UHGV virus genome: UHGV-0141727
Source: a virus
DNA: 64,000 nucleotides
Reading direction: 5' to 3' (one strand)
The notes under the pieces are model-generated. The model was not told the origin of the DNA, did not search any database, and was given only the letters and a program-made list of their open reading frames with translations. Shown in pieces: positions 5,013 through 52,755 of this stretch (position 1 is the stretch's first letter; every line of letters begins with the position of its first letter). The position numbers were made by a program, and so were the translations under genes.

Positions 5013-6698
5013 TTAATTATTGCTCATCACAAATTTTGCAAAGTTGATTAATTGTTCTTGCGTCCAGTTTTCCGGATCGTCACCGGACGACAACGGCGCG
5101 GATTCGTACATACCATGCTCGTTGTTTTGCTCTGATTCATTCGCCTTAAACTCTTTGATCATTACGTTGAGAGTGTCATCGTCGATACGAAGCTGTTCGG
5201 TGAACAGATAGCGCATAAACGCGTCGCTACCCGCCAGTTTCGGGTTGTTCTGGATCTGGTCCATTATTTGCGAGATGACAGCTACGAAGTTGGCGCGCGC
5301 ATCCAGCTCTCGGTTTTCCTCTTCCTGGATAGCTGTGTTCATTGAGTTGAATTGCACGTCATAAGGACGGTTTTTTTCGGTGTAAACCTTCCCGTATTTA
5401 TAAGCGAGGTGAATGTCATGAAGCCGATAAATAGTCCGCTGGGCGGCCTGTCTGATCCAGTTCGCGCGTAATGCGGCCTGGATAGCTGTTTGCTGCCAAC
5501 CGCCTTCTCCAAGCCCCCCACTCATCTGATCAGCCCAGCCAAGCATTGTTGCGTCAATGCCGAGGCTTGCCGCGAGCTGTCGGAGATGAAACATAACGTC
5601 TTCGATACCACTGATATCTGCGGGTATAGATTGCGTATCAATGGTGATCCCGTTCTTCCCATCCCCCATGACAGGTATCAGATGGTTAAGTACAGATGGG
5701 AGAGCATTAGAATTAATTGACCGTTGCGCTACGAGGTCGCTATGGCGCTTCAGTGCCTGGCTGACCCCGCGCGTATAATTCGCCGCGTTTACCGGATCTA
5801 TCGTGTTCGTTGTGAGTGCAATCAGGCGATCAATTTTTGCAGCGTTGTTTCGCGTTGCTTTCAGCGCAGCAAGCGCGGCACATAAATTCAGGTAGGGTTC
5901 ATAACTGTATTCAAGAAACGACGTACCGTAGTTCTGTGTCTCCATTAACGGCTTGTCCTGCTGTTCACTAAGCAAGGAATAGCCTGTAGTGCCGTAAGTT
6001 ACTGGCATTACTTTATGCTGAGGCGTCCAGTACGGGTTTTTCATGGAAACCAGATTCCACGGCTCGGTTATAACTCTGCGCAAAGTATGCGTGTCCAGAA
6101 TGTAATCACCGCTGAATCCGACAAGTTGGCTACCGCGATAAAACTCCTGAACGAAATGAGGGAGCGTGTAATAGCTCGACTCAATTCCAGTTATCCCCTT
6201 CCCTTGCTCTGCATATGGACGGATATACGACACACCGAAAATAGCCATGATCATGGCCCACGATGGAAGGCCATCATTAATCATTGAGCTTAAATCAGCG
6301 GTCAATTCCTCACATCGACTTACAGCCTCCTTATCCGCCCCATTTTTCGGAGCGAGAATAAATGCGAGGCCTGTTTTTTTTGATGGAGCCAGAGAATGCG
6401 CAATGTGAATGTTTAATGCTGTGGAGATAGTCGGACTTTTCGCCATCGTCTCCAGTATGTTGTATTTTTGCAGGCGGTCACTCGGTAATTCTGCCGATAT
6501 AGATACTGTATCCGCCGCGCTTGTCATTCCATCGCTATTGCTCCCCAGGATGCCTGGACGCAAGGCGGACAGGCCAGAACGAGCAACGACGCTATGCCCG
6601 CTCGCAAATACGACCGGATCGGCAGGCGTAACATCACCACCGCTGAAGGCTTTCTTCAATGCCGACAGAAAGCCCTTGTTTTTGTCTTTCGTTGCCAT
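5013..6698 (-). CDS. portal-like virion protein
   Basis: ORF 561 aa, portal-sized, first gene of head operon; assignment by size and synteny only. Confidence 0.35.
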   Translation of the reverse strand: MATKDKNKGFLSALKKAFSGGDVTPADPVVFASGHSVVARSGLSALRPGILGSNSDGMTSAADTVSISAELPSDRLQKYNILETMAKSPTISTALNIHIAHSLAPSKKTGLAFILAPKNGADKEAVSRCEELTADLSSMINDGLPSWAMIMAIFGVSYIRPYAEQGKGITGIESSYYTLPHFVQEFYRGSQLVGFSGDYILDTHTLRRVITEPWNLVSMKNPYWTPQHKVMPVTYGTTGYSLLSEQQDKPLMETQNYGTSFLEYSYEPYLNLCAALAALKATRNNAAKIDRLIALTTNTIDPVNAANYTRGVSQALKRHSDLVAQRSINSNALPSVLNHLIPVMGDGKNGITIDTQSIPADISGIEDVMFHLRQLAASLGIDATMLGWADQMSGGLGEGGWQQTAIQAALRANWIRQAAQRTIYRLHDIHLAYKYGKVYTEKNRPYDVQFNSMNTAIQEEENRELDARANFVAVISQIMDQIQNNPKLAGSDAFMRYLFTEQLRIDDDTLNVMIKEFKANESEQNNEHGMYESAPLSSGDDPENWTQEQLINFAKFVMSNN

Positions 6699-6930
6699 GA
6701 TTCACCGCAAAAGGTTTCCGATTTCGTGGCAGCTTATCCAGTGTGTGATTTCATCAGTAATTTTTCGTTGTTTTCACTATATGCTGATGTTTTTTCATAT
6801 GCGGAAATGCTTTTCCAAAAACGCAACCGCCAAACAAAGAAGTTATGTTTATAAACATTTTTGTTGTGTTTTATATCTTTTGTGTTATTATTCTTGTCGC
6901 CCATGATGGATAAATTGCATAAGGAAACTT

Positions 6931-7113
6931 GTGAAGTATTCAGAGTTCAAACGCTGGTTAATCCAGCAAGGGGCAGAGTTCAGGAAAGCGCCAGGTGGCG
7001 GCAGTCATCAGAAAGTGAACCTGAACGGAAAGCGGTCGGTTTTCCCGGACCACGGTTCAAAGGAAATGCCTGAACCGCTACGCAAGAAAATAATGAAGGA
7101 CCTGGGGCTTTAA
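6931..7113 (+). CDS. hicA: HicA toxin (mRNA interferase)
   Basis: 60-aa ORF MKYSEFKRWL...GGGSHQK; GTG start with AAGGA RBS; followed by hicB. Confidence 0.8.
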   Translation: MKYSEFKRWLIQQGAEFRKAPGGGSHQKVNLNGKRSVFPDHGSKEMPEPLRKKIMKDLGL

Positions 7114-7143
7114 GCCCCAGCCTTTTTCACTAGGAGCTTCTCT

Positions 7144-7575
7144 ATGTTTAACTATCCGGTAAAACTGGAGCGCGACGACAATACCGGCGCGTATGTCGTA
7201 TCATGCCGCGACCTACCATTGTTTAATTCCGTGGGTGACTCAGTTGAAGAAGCGTTGCTTGAGGCTGGTTATGGATTGGTCGCAGCGGTTGCGATTGAGA
7301 TTGAAGAACGCCGACCTGTTCCCACTGGTAGCGAGCCAAAAGAAGGTGAGTACGTTGTCTCTTTGCCAGTGCTACCAGCAATGAAGGCTGCACTCCACAA
7401 CGCGATGATAGAAACCGGCACACGCAAAGCAGAGTTGGCGCGCAAACTCGGAAAAAATGGAACACAGATTGATCGGCTTCTCGACGTCGAACATTCATCG
7501 AAAGTTGAAACTGTCGAGTTGGCACTGCATCAACTGAATAAAAATATCGCCGTATCTGTCACACCAATGCGGTGA
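7144..7575 (+). CDS. hicB: HicB antitoxin with C-terminal DNA-binding region
   Basis: 143-aa ORF immediately downstream of hicA. Confidence 0.8.
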   Translation: MFNYPVKLERDDNTGAYVVSCRDLPLFNSVGDSVEEALLEAGYGLVAAVAIEIEERRPVPTGSEPKEGEYVVSLPVLPAMKAALHNAMIETGTRKAELARKLGKNGTQIDRLLDVEHSSKVETVELALHQLNKNIAVSVTPMR

Positions 7576-7687
7576 CTGCTCCCCGCCCTGGCTGGGCGAG
7601 GATTTACGGGGTATTTGTTAAAAACGCTCTATTCAAAGAAGAAATACCGAATCCCCCGGAGGTTATCCGGGGTGTCCGGTCGCCAGG

Positions 7688-9073
7688 TCAGGTTTCCAGC
7701 CCAAAATCGCTTTGTTCTGTTTTGGCTTCGAACATCGTGAAGTTAAGCCCTTTCCCCTCTCCATGTTCCAGTTCAATCTCATTAGAAACAGCGGTCAAAA
7801 TACTACGTAGATCGACATCTCCACCGCCGAACATATCGCCCAACGCCTGCTGTTTATGAATCAGTTCGTCGTTGATTTTTTGTGCCATTTTTTTGAATGC
7901 AGCCCCCATGCGCTTCGCGCTTCGATTATTTGCCACGATGAATAGCGCCAACGCCTCAGCTTCCGGCGTGCTATCACCGAAGAGTCCGCGCTGGGCTATC
8001 ACCTCTTCCACTGCCTGACCGTTGTCTTTGGCTTCACGAACAAGGTTAATCGCGTCCTGGAGTGCTGCTATAGCCTGTTTATCCAGACCGTTCACCTGCT
8101 CTATACCATCAACCAGACCAGTTACAGCATCATGATGTGCATCGCCAGAAATCGACTGCATTTGCGCAAAGTCACTGGCTGCTGTATTAAGCGCGGTCAG
8201 GATATTGCGCATTTCCGGATCCGGTTCTTCCGCCACAAGCCGAACAAGTCGCTCATCCTTATAGGCTTTGGCAAAAATCGCATTCTGAATGCGATCGATA
8301 AGCTGTTTCGTTGGACGTCCATCGGCTGTAAGCAAACCTGCCGTCGCGGTATCGCCTATTTCGTGCAAAAACGCACGAATAAACGCATCATTGGACCGCG
8401 CCAGTAGATTGCCATCATCTGAAGGATTAAATAGCGCCATGACGCTCTCAGTGAGAAATTGCGCATCCGCATACGCTTTCTCACTTGCAGCCATCTCTTG
8501 CAGATCGCTGATGTTTGAGTCGCGTGCAAATTGAGCACGATCAACGTCAGTGAGGCGCTCGCGAACCAGTACAGGCATCACCATTGCCCTGACGTCTTCG
8601 GGATTAAGGCCAAACTCTTTAGCGTGATCGATAAGATATTGTCGGTAATCTTCAGCCTGCCCTTGTTCATAAGCACGCCAGATTCCCATGCTTCGACCAT
8701 TACCAGACTCAACGACATTATCCGGACCAACAATCGGGGAACCATGACTACTCATACCCGAATCAGTGAGTTGTGCCGGGCGTAAATTGGCGGCGATACG
8801 GTTAACCTGGAGCTTACTTGACAGTCGGGTGCGATCGCGAGGCTGGAGTTCCTCCGGAAATGACGGATTTATACTTCCGTCCAGGTTGTTAGAAATGATG
8901 AGCTTTTTGGCATCAATAACCTTGAACGCTGTTTTAACTTCGTCGCCTTTGCTGGTGACGACATAGCTGCTACGCCCCAACTTCGTCTCTTGCTTTTCAA
9001 GAGATGACACCACAGCGATAACCCCCTCAATGTTCGCTGCGGCTAGAAGTGCTGATGTTACGTTTTGAGTCAC
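7688..9073 (-). CDS. hypothetical virion-associated protein (last gene of Dar-like cluster)
   Basis: ORF 461 aa; position after DarA/DdrA-like genes. Confidence 0.3.
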   Translation of the reverse strand: MTQNVTSALLAAANIEGVIAVVSSLEKQETKLGRSSYVVTSKGDEVKTAFKVIDAKKLIISNNLDGSINPSFPEELQPRDRTRLSSKLQVNRIAANLRPAQLTDSGMSSHGSPIVGPDNVVESGNGRSMGIWRAYEQGQAEDYRQYLIDHAKEFGLNPEDVRAMVMPVLVRERLTDVDRAQFARDSNISDLQEMAASEKAYADAQFLTESVMALFNPSDDGNLLARSNDAFIRAFLHEIGDTATAGLLTADGRPTKQLIDRIQNAIFAKAYKDERLVRLVAEEPDPEMRNILTALNTAASDFAQMQSISGDAHHDAVTGLVDGIEQVNGLDKQAIAALQDAINLVREAKDNGQAVEEVIAQRGLFGDSTPEAEALALFIVANNRSAKRMGAAFKKMAQKINDELIHKQQALGDMFGGGDVDLRSILTAVSNEIELEHGEGKGLNFTMFEAKTEQSDFGLET

Positions 9074-12858: not shown

Positions 12859-12940
12859 ACCCCTCCAGAAATGACGTTTAACGCGGCTTCAACTTATCCA
12901 GTTTGTTATTTCCCGACTAAATGCCATTCACACAAAATGG

Positions 12941-45403: not shown

Positions 45404-45540
45404 AGGTCGATTTATCAGGTATAGAGGGGAATTGTCTGGAGATTGTGATTTGTTTGTCGCCAGGTAATTTCTTTAGATTGATGAGGCGAAATCTATCGGA
45501 GGTGCGGTATCATTGTTCGGTCAGAACTTAAGGAGAAACA

Positions 45541-46080
45541 GTGAGTCAGGAAGTTGAAAAGTGGCGAGCATTTGAACACCCTGATGGTGTTATTCGTGAT
45601 TTGTCATTTCTTGACGCTCATCAGGCTGTGTTTGTTCAGCAACAAGAAGGAAAGCAACCGATAGAGTATCGCTTTTGGGTTACGTACTCTTTTCACTGCT
45701 TCACAAAAGACTATGCACACCAGACTGAGGAAGAGAAACTGGCGTTAATGTACCACGCCCCTAAAGAGTCTCGTCCATTTTGTGAGCGTCGCTATAATCT
45801 TGCCAAACTTCACTTAAAAGAGGCAATTCTGTCATTGTCGGAAGGTAAGGTGATCCATGCCGGATACGGAAGCTATGCCGTTATTGAGGTAAATATTGGG
45901 GAGGGTAACAAGGAGTATTATTTTGTTGCGTTTAAGGCTTTCAGGGAAAAGAAAAAGTTGCGGTTACACATCACTAGCGCCTACCCGGTATCAGAAAAAC
46001 CAAATGGCAGGTCAGTGAAGTTTTTCGCAATCGCATACAATCTGTTAAGGAACAAACCGCTTCCTAAGCCACCAAAATAA
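45541..46080 (+). CDS. orphan opposite-strand protein of unknown function
   Basis: 179-aa ORF, GTG start with AAGGAG RBS, own terminator. Confidence 0.4.
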   Translation: MSQEVEKWRAFEHPDGVIRDLSFLDAHQAVFVQQQEGKQPIEYRFWVTYSFHCFTKDYAHQTEEEKLALMYHAPKESRPFCERRYNLAKLHLKEAILSLSEGKVIHAGYGSYAVIEVNIGEGNKEYYFVAFKAFREKKKLRLHITSAYPVSEKPNGRSVKFFAIAYNLLRNKPLPKPPK

Positions 46081-46082
46081 CA

Positions 46083-46104
46083 AAGCCCACCTTAAGGTGG
46101 GCTT
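46083..46104. terminator. hairpin AAGCCCACC/GGTGGGCTT directly after 45541..46080
   Basis: 9-bp stem; T-tract on minus side. Confidence 0.45.
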
Positions 46105-46305
46105 CGCCAGAAATTATTTTCTGGTATTCAGAACGCCATTACCGGACTTTGCCTTGACCAAGTATCACAACTGGTTTGACCTGTTATGATAGCTGGTTGC
46201 GGGATGTCTGAATTTCTTCAGTCTGCTGCATCCTCGAAGGTTTGGTTCAACATGTACCATTCCTTCACCGTCATAATAGTGTACTATTCACGTCCTTGCA
46301 AACAC

Positions 46306-47511
46306 TTATACATTTTTTACGTTGTTCTTCACATACGCCATGAACATCTTTTCGGCTTGTGCTGGTGGTGTTCCTGCCATAACAAGCGCATCAATGAACG
46401 CCTGCTTCTTCAGTGCGAACTGATCAGCAAGGCGTTGCTGAAGTTCCTTGTTTTTCTGCTTCTCCCGTTGCAAAGCTGCTTCTTTTGCCGCTGCCCGTTT
46501 TTTCTGTGCGTCGGATAACTTTCTGGCCCTGGTCAGTTGGTCACGCAGCTTGTCGATCTTACCGTTGTCCTTTGCCAGTTTTGAGCTTAAAGCGGCCTGG
46601 CGTTTCTGATAGAGCTTCCATTCACGTTTAGCTGCCTCAACATTCGTTTTGCTGCTACGGTTTCGATTGAACGCCTTCTCGTCTTCTTTTGTGAAGTGTT
46701 TTGTCGTGCGGCGGCGATCGTCACCAAAGGCAACTTGCTTTGCAGCTTTTTGCAGGGCGCGAGCAATACTCATCTGCCAACTGGCAGACTGTAGTCGTGT
46801 CATTGAGTGGATCACATGTTTACAGGCGACGCCTTGCAGCTTAGGGTTGCGAACTTTTGGATAGGCGTATTCTTTTGGCGGGGCCAGGGCAAAGTTACCC
46901 GCAGTGGCGATGTAGCGATACCAGTATTGATGGCGACCGCAGTCACAGTCGAAAGACACTCGCCCGGCACACAGTGATTTTGTGACTTTCAGGGCTGATT
47001 TATCGTCTTCTGCGATGTCATCGACCATCTGATCCCATTCTTCAAAACGTACCCGGACAATGTGGTGCTGGTGAACGGATATATCGGACGCTTCCACGCG
47101 GATATTAATCACATTGTGACGAAGAGATACGGGCGTAGCTCTTTTGATACCAGAACCGTCGTCTACGGCGTTATTTGCTCGCTTAATATCGATAGCCTGG
47201 CTGGACGCTACCAGTTGTGCGTATGTGATGCCAGCCGTCTTGCTGTCATATTTTTCGCGTGCTTTGCTTCGCAGCTTTTCGAAGCCTTTCAGATCGTCAC
47301 GCGTAAAGAACGTGCCGCCTTTCTTTTTCCCCAGCTTAAGAATGTCTTCGGCTGATTTATTCCTAAGCCTGCCCGGCGTGAGTGTCCTGTGCGCCTGGCG
47401 GCGTTTGCGGTTTTGCTCTTTCCTGATGAGTTCAAATACGCGTGTGAAATCCTTAGAGGACAGACCGTTAGTGATATATCGCCCGTCCTGATTTTTCAGG
47501 AAGTCAGGCAT
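46306..47511 (-). CDS. SWIM-type zinc-finger protein with basic coiled-coil C-terminus
   Basis: 401-aa ORF; CxC...CxH pattern in FDCDCGRHQYW...ACKHV. Confidence 0.35.
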   Translation of the reverse strand: MPDFLKNQDGRYITNGLSSKDFTRVFELIRKEQNRKRRQAHRTLTPGRLRNKSAEDILKLGKKKGGTFFTRDDLKGFEKLRSKAREKYDSKTAGITYAQLVASSQAIDIKRANNAVDDGSGIKRATPVSLRHNVINIRVEASDISVHQHHIVRVRFEEWDQMVDDIAEDDKSALKVTKSLCAGRVSFDCDCGRHQYWYRYIATAGNFALAPPKEYAYPKVRNPKLQGVACKHVIHSMTRLQSASWQMSIARALQKAAKQVAFGDDRRRTTKHFTKEDEKAFNRNRSSKTNVEAAKREWKLYQKRQAALSSKLAKDNGKIDKLRDQLTRARKLSDAQKKRAAAKEAALQREKQKNKELQQRLADQFALKKQAFIDALVMAGTPPAQAEKMFMAYVKNNVKNV

Positions 47512-52459: not shown

Positions 52460-52620
52460 ACTAAGTTAAGGAGCTACCGCGTGAGGTTCCAATCTCAATG
52501 GCGGTAGCACTGACTGGGTTGGAACTACCGGCGTCAAAGGGAACCGGCCTGCCTTTCGGCAGCCCAGCCAGCACTACCATTGATCTCTGAGCTAAACGCT
52601 ACGTATGGCTGTGCGATGGC
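52460..52620 (-). ncRNA. candidate c4-like antisense/leader RNA region upstream of icd (inference only)
   Basis: ORF-free structured region between a terminator and icd; position analogous to P1 c4. Confidence 0.2.
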
Positions 52621-52624
52621 ATGA

Positions 52625-52651
52625 CACAAAAAAAGACGCTTTCGGCGTCTG
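52625..52651 (-). terminator. intrinsic terminator AGACGC/GCGTCT plus T7 on minus strand
   Basis: hairpin immediately followed by TTTTTTTGTG. Confidence 0.55.
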
Positions 52652-52755
52652 TGTCGCCTTTGACATTATCCGGGGTTCCAATCCCGGCACCCGTTTTTCT
52701 AAGGTGCCGTAGAAATATACCCCACGATAATGCCAGGGCGCAACTGTGTGTTTTC

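Follow-up and report, generated by a model that had tools for sequence, protein, structure and literature searches.

Why should two small plus-strand genes stand inside a block of virion genes, between neighbours that read the other way? We asked this of a 64,000-nt stretch of the virus genome UHGV-0141727 (hereafter, the window), in which an earlier note had recognised a toxin gene, hicA, and an antitoxin gene, hicB, between a portal-like gene and a Dar-like cluster, both on the minus strand. This layout was borne out: the two open reading frames (ORFs) are present at 6931–7113 and 7144–7575, and their neighbours were identified by matches to phrog_1497 and Pfam. We are highly confident, from the sequence comparisons described below, that the pair is a hicAB type II toxin–antitoxin (TA) operon. 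By comparison with related replicons, the operon is assigned as one acquired horizontally by a D6-like phage-plasmid, at the boundary between the dar late operon and the prt–pro genes. Its most likely role, held with moderate confidence, is that of a stabilising module of a low-copy plasmid prophage, acting by post-segregational killing.

The first gene, hicA (6931–7113, plus strand), encodes a predicted RNase toxin of 60 residues. It starts with GTG, six nucleotides downstream of the Shine-Dalgarno sequence AAGGA (6921–6925). HicA matched Pfam HicA_toxin (PF07927; E 1.3e-9, 38.4 bits against a cut-off of 27) and phrog_353 of PHROGs, labelled 'toxin' (8e-15). Over its full length, it also matched chain A of PDB 6HPB, the solved HicA of Escherichia coli K-12 (1e-12). 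Its size lies within the 50–100 residues of the HicA_toxin family with its dsRBD fold. The earlier note had named a lack of conserved catalytic residues as the result that would speak against a toxin. In the alignment, HicA His26 pairs with His23 of K-12 HicA (EcHicA) and was invariant in 14 sequences (13 homologues and EcHicA). Gly24 was nearly invariant in the same set, and the two residues form the predicted catalytic motif. Catalytic roles have been described for EcHicA His23, BpsHicA His24 and YpHicA3 His28, with a preceding glycine (PMC11594946).

The second gene, hicB (7144–7575, plus strand), has an ATG start preceded by the Shine-Dalgarno sequence AGGAG at 7132–7136 and encodes a predicted antitoxin and repressor of 143 residues. 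Residues 4–82 matched Pfam HicB-like_2 (E 4.9e-13, 49.5 bits against a cut-off of 30), consistent with an N-terminal partial RNase-H-like domain, and the protein belongs to phrog_497, 'HicB-like' (6e-35). Residues 3–137 matched chain B of 6HPB (2.5e-15), the helix-turn-helix (HTH) domain included; residues 84–137 aligned without gaps to the HTH domain of E. coli HicB (6HPB, 6U0I), from which we predict an HTH domain here. Pfam returned no separate HTH match in HicB, and an NCBIfam scan gave nothing useful. The hicA stop codon (7113) and the hicB start codon (7144) are separated by 30 nt on the same strand, as predicted for a toxin-first bicistronic operon.

This order, together with an HTH-type HicB, places the predicted operon in class 3 of the Gerdes scheme, which is defined by hicA followed by an HTH-type hicB (PMC10865869). 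The HicAB systems of class 4, such as Yersinia pestis HicAB3 and Burkholderia pseudomallei HicAB, have the same toxin fold and catalytic Gly/His motif, and they share the logic of neutralisation and autoregulation through palindromic operators (PMC11594946). Their HicB, however, is of the ribbon-helix-helix rather than the HTH type, and the similarity to PDB 6G1N and 6G1C was marginal (E ≈ 0.7). RefSeq already labels the two proteins as HicA family toxin and HicB family antitoxin; the pair described here is one more member of a known family.

The closest well-characterised counterpart is HicAB of K-12 (hicA b4532, hicB b1438; 6HPB). The two systems share the hicA–hicB order, a GTG start of hicA, the catalytic histidine and similar protein sizes (60 and 143 residues here, 58 and 138 in K-12). 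Both HicB proteins combine an N-terminal partial RNase-H-like domain with a C-terminal HTH, and in both systems an extended −10 element is preceded by an AAC-N6-GTT palindrome. They differ in sequence (50% identity for HicA and 31% for HicB), in the number of apparent operators (three phased sites here, one palindrome in K-12), in a hairpin over the hicA stop codon that K-12 lacks, and in location, chromosomal in K-12 and on a phage-plasmid here. We found no evidence in this cassette for the dual-promoter (P1/P2) scheme of K-12.

The leader of hicA contains the candidate regulatory sites. It is AT-rich (GC content 0.335 over 6700–6899, against 0.47–0.55 on either side). The earlier note had described 6699–6930 as an AT-rich divergent promoter region; the base composition was as claimed, and divergent promoters are plausible, with a hicA promoter in the insert and a prt element in the backbone. 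Three inverted repeats of the form AAC-N6-GTT lie on the plus strand (O1, 6833–6844; O2, 6854–6865; O3, 6875–6886) at a spacing of exactly 21 bp, O3 with one mismatch. We regard them as candidate HicB operators (hicO) on the strength of their phasing and their enrichment among homologues. Exact AAC-N6-GTT occurred at 20 sites in 19 distinct homologous upstream regions, compared with 0.76 in shuffled sequences (≈ 26-fold), and the 21-bp phasing recurs in many homologues of the cassette. In K-12, the one obvious palindrome ahead of hicA, AACACTAATGTT, is built from identical half-sites. The array, with its K-12-type half-sites, provides a testable operator model for an HTH-type HicB. A perfect 14-bp palindrome, ATGTTTATAAACAT (6845–6858), was rejected as an operator: it was not conserved in the homologues, whereas the AAC-N6-GTT sites that flank and overlap it were.

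A putative promoter is given by an extended −10 element, TGTTATTAT (6883–6891, plus strand), which is conserved in homologues of the cassette and has no good −35 hexamer; transcription is predicted to start near 6898. A strict σ70 two-hexamer scan of the leader returned no promoter, and it is the conserved extended −10 that underlies the promoter call. O3 overlaps this element and, taken together, the three candidate operators overlap the predicted −35/−10 region.

Two hairpins follow hicB. One, directly 3′ of its stop codon (7581–7601, plus strand), is GC-rich with a weak T-run and was found by folding the RNA of 7576–7690 on both strands; it is a candidate hicAB terminator. The other has arms at 7646–7660 and 7666–7680 and, on the minus strand, runs into a U-rich tail (7632–7680; minus-strand fold z −2.55) and is a candidate terminator of the dar operon. 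This hairpin, downstream of ddrB, is the stronger of the two and is shared by the cassette copies of two variant plasmids (L003 and L005). With its phased operators, extended −10 and convergent terminators, the cassette looks self-contained. Rfam reported no RNA family in 6600–7800. A segment just 3′ of hicB that includes the GC-rich hairpin (7571–7630) matched unannotated DNA of Klebsiella phage phiKp_30 at 87%, and may be a small mobile terminator or repeat element.

On what kind of replicon does the cassette reside? In nucleotide comparisons, the region matched Escherichia phage D6 at ≈ 85% identity and, at up to 99.4%, a group of E. coli plasmids that are circular, non-mobilizable and ≈ 90 kb in size. 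These plasmids encode RepB, ParM, icd/ant, repL, pro, prt, the dar genes, lydAB and tail genes, and a partition ATPase is likewise found on the ≈ 90-kb D6-like plasmid-prophage backbone. Given matches both to D6 and to E. coli plasmids with phage as well as replication and partition genes, we assign the window to a D6-like, P1-related E. coli phage-plasmid. To the left of the cassette lies prt (5013–6698, minus strand), an ORF that matched the portal family phrog_1497 (1.1e-225) and whose D6 counterpart, orf22, is annotated as 'similar to P1 prt'. To the right, ddrB (7688–9073; Pfam ddrB-ParB, 2.5e-40; junction alignment) closes the dar late operon; in window coordinates, the minus-strand genes ddrB, ddrA and darA follow one another from 7688 (Pfam ddrB-ParB, DarA_N and DarA_C).

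To define the extent of the foreign DNA, the window was compared with relatives that lack it, as the earlier note had proposed. In pEC361_3 (NZ_AP027414), only 64 bp separate the prt start from the ddrB stop, and prt and ddrB were likewise 64 bp apart in most other relatives, both close and distant. BLAST breakpoints and junction alignments showed that homology of pEC361_3 to the window extends at 99.3% identity through 6753 and resumes at 7727 at 91.8%. Thus, 973 bp of the window (6754–7726, plus strand) stand in place of 48 bp. A foreign hicAB block had been correctly recognised, but the bounds given for it, 6699–7575, were not: 6699–6753 is the backbone leader of prt, and the block continues past hicB to 7726. 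About 120 of the 130 PLSDB relatives that match the region did so in two pieces and, among the matches listed, the span was ≈ 3.05 kb, the length expected of an empty site. Such empty sites occur in near and remote relatives alike (flank identity 85–99%).

At its right edge (≈ 7643–7726), which includes the last ≈ 13 codons of ddrB, the block does not look like new DNA but like a diverged allele, further from the relatives, of the ddrB 3′ end and the intergenic sequence. From this we conclude that it was probably brought in by recombination with a plasmid in which it was already present. Inspection of the junctions revealed neither a target-site duplication nor terminal inverted repeats, the signs of transposon-like ends. 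A similarity between the two junctions (TTATCC-G-GTG) was considered as a pair of cassette ends and set aside, as it was marginal (13/16; shuffle p ≈ 0.03) and is better explained as a diverged copy of the ancestral intergenic region.

The same slot holds other genes elsewhere. In D6 (L001, 4927–5861), the space between prt and ddrB is filled by two unrelated minus-strand ORFs, orf23 and orf24, the latter with a weak DUF4145 match (E 7.6e-4); this indicates a recurrent site for accessory cargo. In an IMG/VR contig of a more distant lineage (L043; ddrB ≈ 77% identical), a 90% identical hicAB and an extra 99-residue ORF lie by the ddrB 3′ end, which suggests that use of the slot is either recurrent or long-standing. 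The description of the cassette as a moron-like accessory insertion was upheld by these comparisons. It is an accessory block absent from close relatives, lies between transcription units and has, as predicted, its own promoter, operators and terminators. PHROGs files both the HicA and the HicB family in its moron category.

How can an oppositely oriented insert with its own terminators be tolerated in a virion block? A possible answer lies in the backbone sequence at its left junction. A 22-bp element, AAATCACACACTGGATAAGCTG (6731–6752, minus strand), lies 35 nt upstream of the prt ATG and directly abuts the junction at 6753/6754; it is also present in an empty-site relative (L004). A near-identical copy (19/22) lies at 12891–12912 on the same strand, at the same distance (34–35 nt) upstream of the start codon of lydA, the first gene of the dar operon. 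The two share the form AAATMACAMACTGGATAAGYTG, and exact ACTGGATAAG occurs in only two copies in the 64-kb window, at these very elements. We infer that the element is a promoter element, with TAAGCT as the TANNNT hexamer of a candidate prt promoter. It may represent a D6-type late promoter, unlike the −22/−10 sequence annotated for P1 LPdar. If so, the cassette would lie precisely where the dar operon has ended and the prt–pro unit has yet to begin, and such a placement would explain why the insert is tolerated. The pattern derived from the P1 LPdar annotation, AAGTTACTT-N4-TANNNT, was tried and discarded: it matched the window three times against 4.4 expected, at no relevant position. Evidently, D6-type late promoters differ from the P1 type.

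Relatives of the cassette are found on quite different replicons. The module from ≈ 6834 to the hicB stop recurs at 69–87% nucleotide identity in unrelated replicons, among them Yersinia phage PY54, an Enterobacter phage and Enterobacter, Citrobacter and Providencia plasmids of 41–50 kb. The module has a DNA-methyltransferase gene as neighbour in PY54, in the Enterobacter plasmid and in one Citrobacter plasmid, and lysis genes as well in the former two: an N15/PY54-like setting. On ≈ 360-kb conjugative Klebsiella plasmids it adjoins Phd/YefM–RelE and PrlF, and on a Fukatsuia plasmid it adjoins rep. More distant copies occur in large contigs or chromosomes of Photorhabdus, Xenorhabdus, Pectobacterium and others. 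The PY54 pair (ORF58 region), from the N15-like linear plasmid prophages, belongs to the same clade (82% amino acid identity for HicA and 76% for HicB). It shares the intercistronic hairpin and has similar phased half-sites upstream of hicA, and its host element is also a phage-plasmid. It differs in that PY54 is of another phage family and carries the pair near methyltransferase and antA genes rather than in a virion block. The intact hicA of PY54 (L007, 4002–4184; 82% identical) lies upstream of ORF58, annotated as 'HicB-like', and is itself unannotated in the RefSeq record.

Among 5,426 complete E. coli genomes, the cassette occupies exactly the same place in 10, and an insertion sequence (IS) variant is present in 5. 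All 25 matching places in these genomes are on plasmids and none is chromosomal. Several independent isolates from humans, dogs, chicken, monkey and wastewater carry the cassette at 98.9–99.5% conservation. In the variant plasmids L003 and L005, an IS200/IS605-type element encoding TnpB only is inserted after TTCAG in codon 5 of hicA (equivalent to 6943/6944 of the window; ≈ 4850–6058 in L003 and 4427–5745 in L005). Its protein matched Pfam OrfB_IS605 and Cas12f1-like_TNB, and Rfam found no omega-RNA model in the TnpB element of L005. The right end of the element restores a K-Q-S-Q N terminus in frame with hicA, 4 nt past the tnpB stop, so HicA may be expressed from the tnpB transcript. In an Escherichia marmotae variant, in which the IS lies between hicA and the leader, substitutions cluster in O1 and in the −10 (TATTAT to TGCCAT) and the leader is otherwise almost unchanged, a pattern in keeping with the proposed regulatory sites.

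The IS variants carry a gene for an Xre-type HTH regulator and a DUF3944/Ubiq_cyt_C_chap-like gene after hicB (7010–8238 in L003; 6707–7935 in L005), a pair that may be another two-gene accessory or TA-like module. Either the pair takes the place of ddrB, or the whole block is found between ddrB and ddrA. Just downstream of hicAB, another TnpB gene is present on a plasmid of Enterobacter asburiae (L008). Together, the empty site, the intact cassette, the IS-disrupted cassette and the relocated cassette form a natural series for testing a phage-plasmid HicAB; no plasmid-borne HicAB has been characterised (PMC11594946).

What, then, does the operon do? In the reading that we favour, hicAB would be transcribed in the lysogen from its own extended −10 promoter. 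HicB dimers would bind the three AAC-N6-GTT operators, 21 bp apart over the −35/−10 region, through their C-terminal HTH and thereby repress their own synthesis. The N-terminal domain of HicB would cover the active site of HicA, a predicted His26-dependent mRNA interferase. Upon loss of the prophage, or when host transcription and translation are shut off, HicB, if labile, would decay and HicA would arrest growth. Stabilisation of the plasmid prophage by post-segregational killing is, in our judgement, somewhat better than an even bet, and an abortive-infection side effect is possible.

Several observations support stabilisation. The replicon is of the low-copy kind expected of an addiction module, a D6-like plasmid prophage, and the distribution of the clade in E. 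coli is strictly on plasmids or phage-plasmids (25/25 matches). Homologues elsewhere adjoin rep or par genes and other TA pairs, and a Paracoccus prophage HicAB stabilises plasmids (PMC11594946). Phd–Doc of P1 is likewise a type II TA on a P1-type plasmid prophage, but its proteins are of unrelated families, the antitoxin gene comes first and the locus is another one; the established role in post-segregational killing is that of Phd–Doc, and the same role is proposed by inference for hicAB here. HicA–HicB of Cyrano, an SSU5-like phage-plasmid of E. coli LF82, is expressed as a moron in the LF82 lysogen (PMC9928086). It is likened to our pair by gene content and host element rather than by sequence, as Cyrano belongs to a different phage-plasmid family.

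Other observations weigh against a stabilising role. On the near-identical plasmid CP104667, phd-doc and a RelE/HigA pair are already present, which would make a third addiction module redundant. Sister plasmids tolerate the TnpB IS in codon 5 of hicA, and the persistence of the disrupted gene indicates that the cassette is dispensable. A terminator-like hairpin between the toxin and antitoxin genes is hard to square with simple co-expression. A maintenance role was discarded for HicAB of the IncX4 plasmid pJIE143 (PMC11594946), and HicAB2 of a Pseudomonas putida prophage had no effect on stability or defence (PMC12894663).

The same hicAB could instead be kept mainly for abortive infection, or defence against superinfection: a competing phage would shut off host transcription, HicB would decay, HicA would cleave RNA and clonal lysogens would be protected. 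We consider this possible but unlikely. TA modules are commonly anti-phage and the contexts of HicA suggest defence (Gerdes 2024, PMC10865869); a phage-plasmid that has phd-doc is already provided with an addiction module; and the cargo found at or near the slot, including the D6 genes with their weak DUF4145 match, the HTH–DUF3944 pair and the 99-residue ORF beside hicAB in relatives, would fit a site for defence genes. Yet the slot between prt and ddrB is not recognisable as a defence island, and PADLOC returned no match for HicA and only a marginal PDC-M64C match for HicB (E 0.0064), over the HTH, so that the pair does not fall among known defence systems. Moreover, no HicAB has yet been shown by experiment to defend against phage (PMC11594946), and neither P. 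putida HicAB2 nor Adephagia HicAB gave a defence phenotype (PMC12894663, PMC11594946).

A selfish or near-neutral passenger, hard to lose, hitch-hiking on phage-plasmids without measurable benefit to phage or host and undergoing inactivation in some lineages, is a rather improbable explanation. It would account for the rarity of the cassette (intact in 10 and IS-disrupted in 5 of the 5,426 genomes), for the decay of the −10 and O1 in the IS variant and for the movement of the module between positions by recombination. It also agrees with the negative outcome of published stability and defence tests of other HicAB systems borne on mobile genetic elements (PMC12894663, PMC11594946). A mere passenger is, however, not expected to keep both ORFs, the operators, the promoter and the terminators intact, as this cassette has, nor to be conserved at 98.9–99.5% among independent isolates and, as a clade, across several phage-plasmid families.

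The hairpin over the hicA stop codon raises a further question. It is terminator-like, CTGGGGCT-TTA-AGCCCCAG followed by CCTTTTTCAC (7102–7130, plus strand; terminator scan), with an 8-bp GC-rich stem and a T-run, and lies ahead of hicB; the predicted folding energy is −18.6 kcal/mol (z −2.8). Its right arm, which is non-coding, and the T-run are conserved in a phage- and plasmid-borne clade that comprises D6-like and PY54/N15-like phage-plasmids, Klebsiella and Providencia plasmids and several IMG/VR contigs. No such hairpin was seen in K-12 or in the homologues at greater distance, most of them chromosomal. Within the clade that bears it there was almost no variation, too little for covariation to bear on the hairpin, and no compensatory change. 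It could be an attenuator, an mRNA-stabilising 3′ end or an insulator against antisense read-through. A bolder reading is that it uncouples transcription of hicA and hicB in this clade: HicB would be supplied by read-through, and altered termination or elongation, or late antisense transcription from the convergent dar operon, would free HicA. We rate this as very unlikely; if true, the uncoupling would serve as an inbuilt switch that starts abortive infection or shuts off the host during the element's own lytic cycle.

That hicAB is ancestral at this site and was deleted from most D6/P1-like relatives is the least probable of all and hardly to be credited. In its favour, the divergent lineage L043 also has hicAB by the ddrB 3′ end, and there is a weak resemblance between the block's right edge and the ancestral intergenic region. 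Against it, the empty site is seen in relatives with flank identities all the way from 85% to 99%, the slot of D6 is taken up by unrelated genes, the nearest relatives of the cassette are in unrelated replicons, and the insert has an AT-rich leader and terminators of its own.

The cassette adds a further case of phage-plasmids gathering TA modules at operon boundaries inside conserved virion blocks; a near-identical relative has three such modules. HicAB morons on E. coli phage-plasmids have been reported before (PMC9928086), and the current understanding of the HicAB family is unchanged; what is useful here is detail, namely the operator array, the hairpin between the two genes and the natural series of alleles.

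Away from hicAB, the window has another variable slot (45451–46325), located between baseplate and tail genes and oriented the opposite way. In CP104667 it contains RelE/ParE–HigA and two further genes. In the window it contains an ORF of 179 residues (45541–46080, plus strand) and a strong Rfam match to the small RNA sroH (46082–46267, minus strand, 113 bits). The window also encodes the C4 antisense RNA twice, once together with a c4 a1/b1 target element, and an isrK-like Hfq-binding RNA adjoins the second copy (2475–2560, 2628–2680, 52497–52584 and 52629–52707, all on the minus strand). The two copies imply two immI-type immunity regions in the phage-plasmid.

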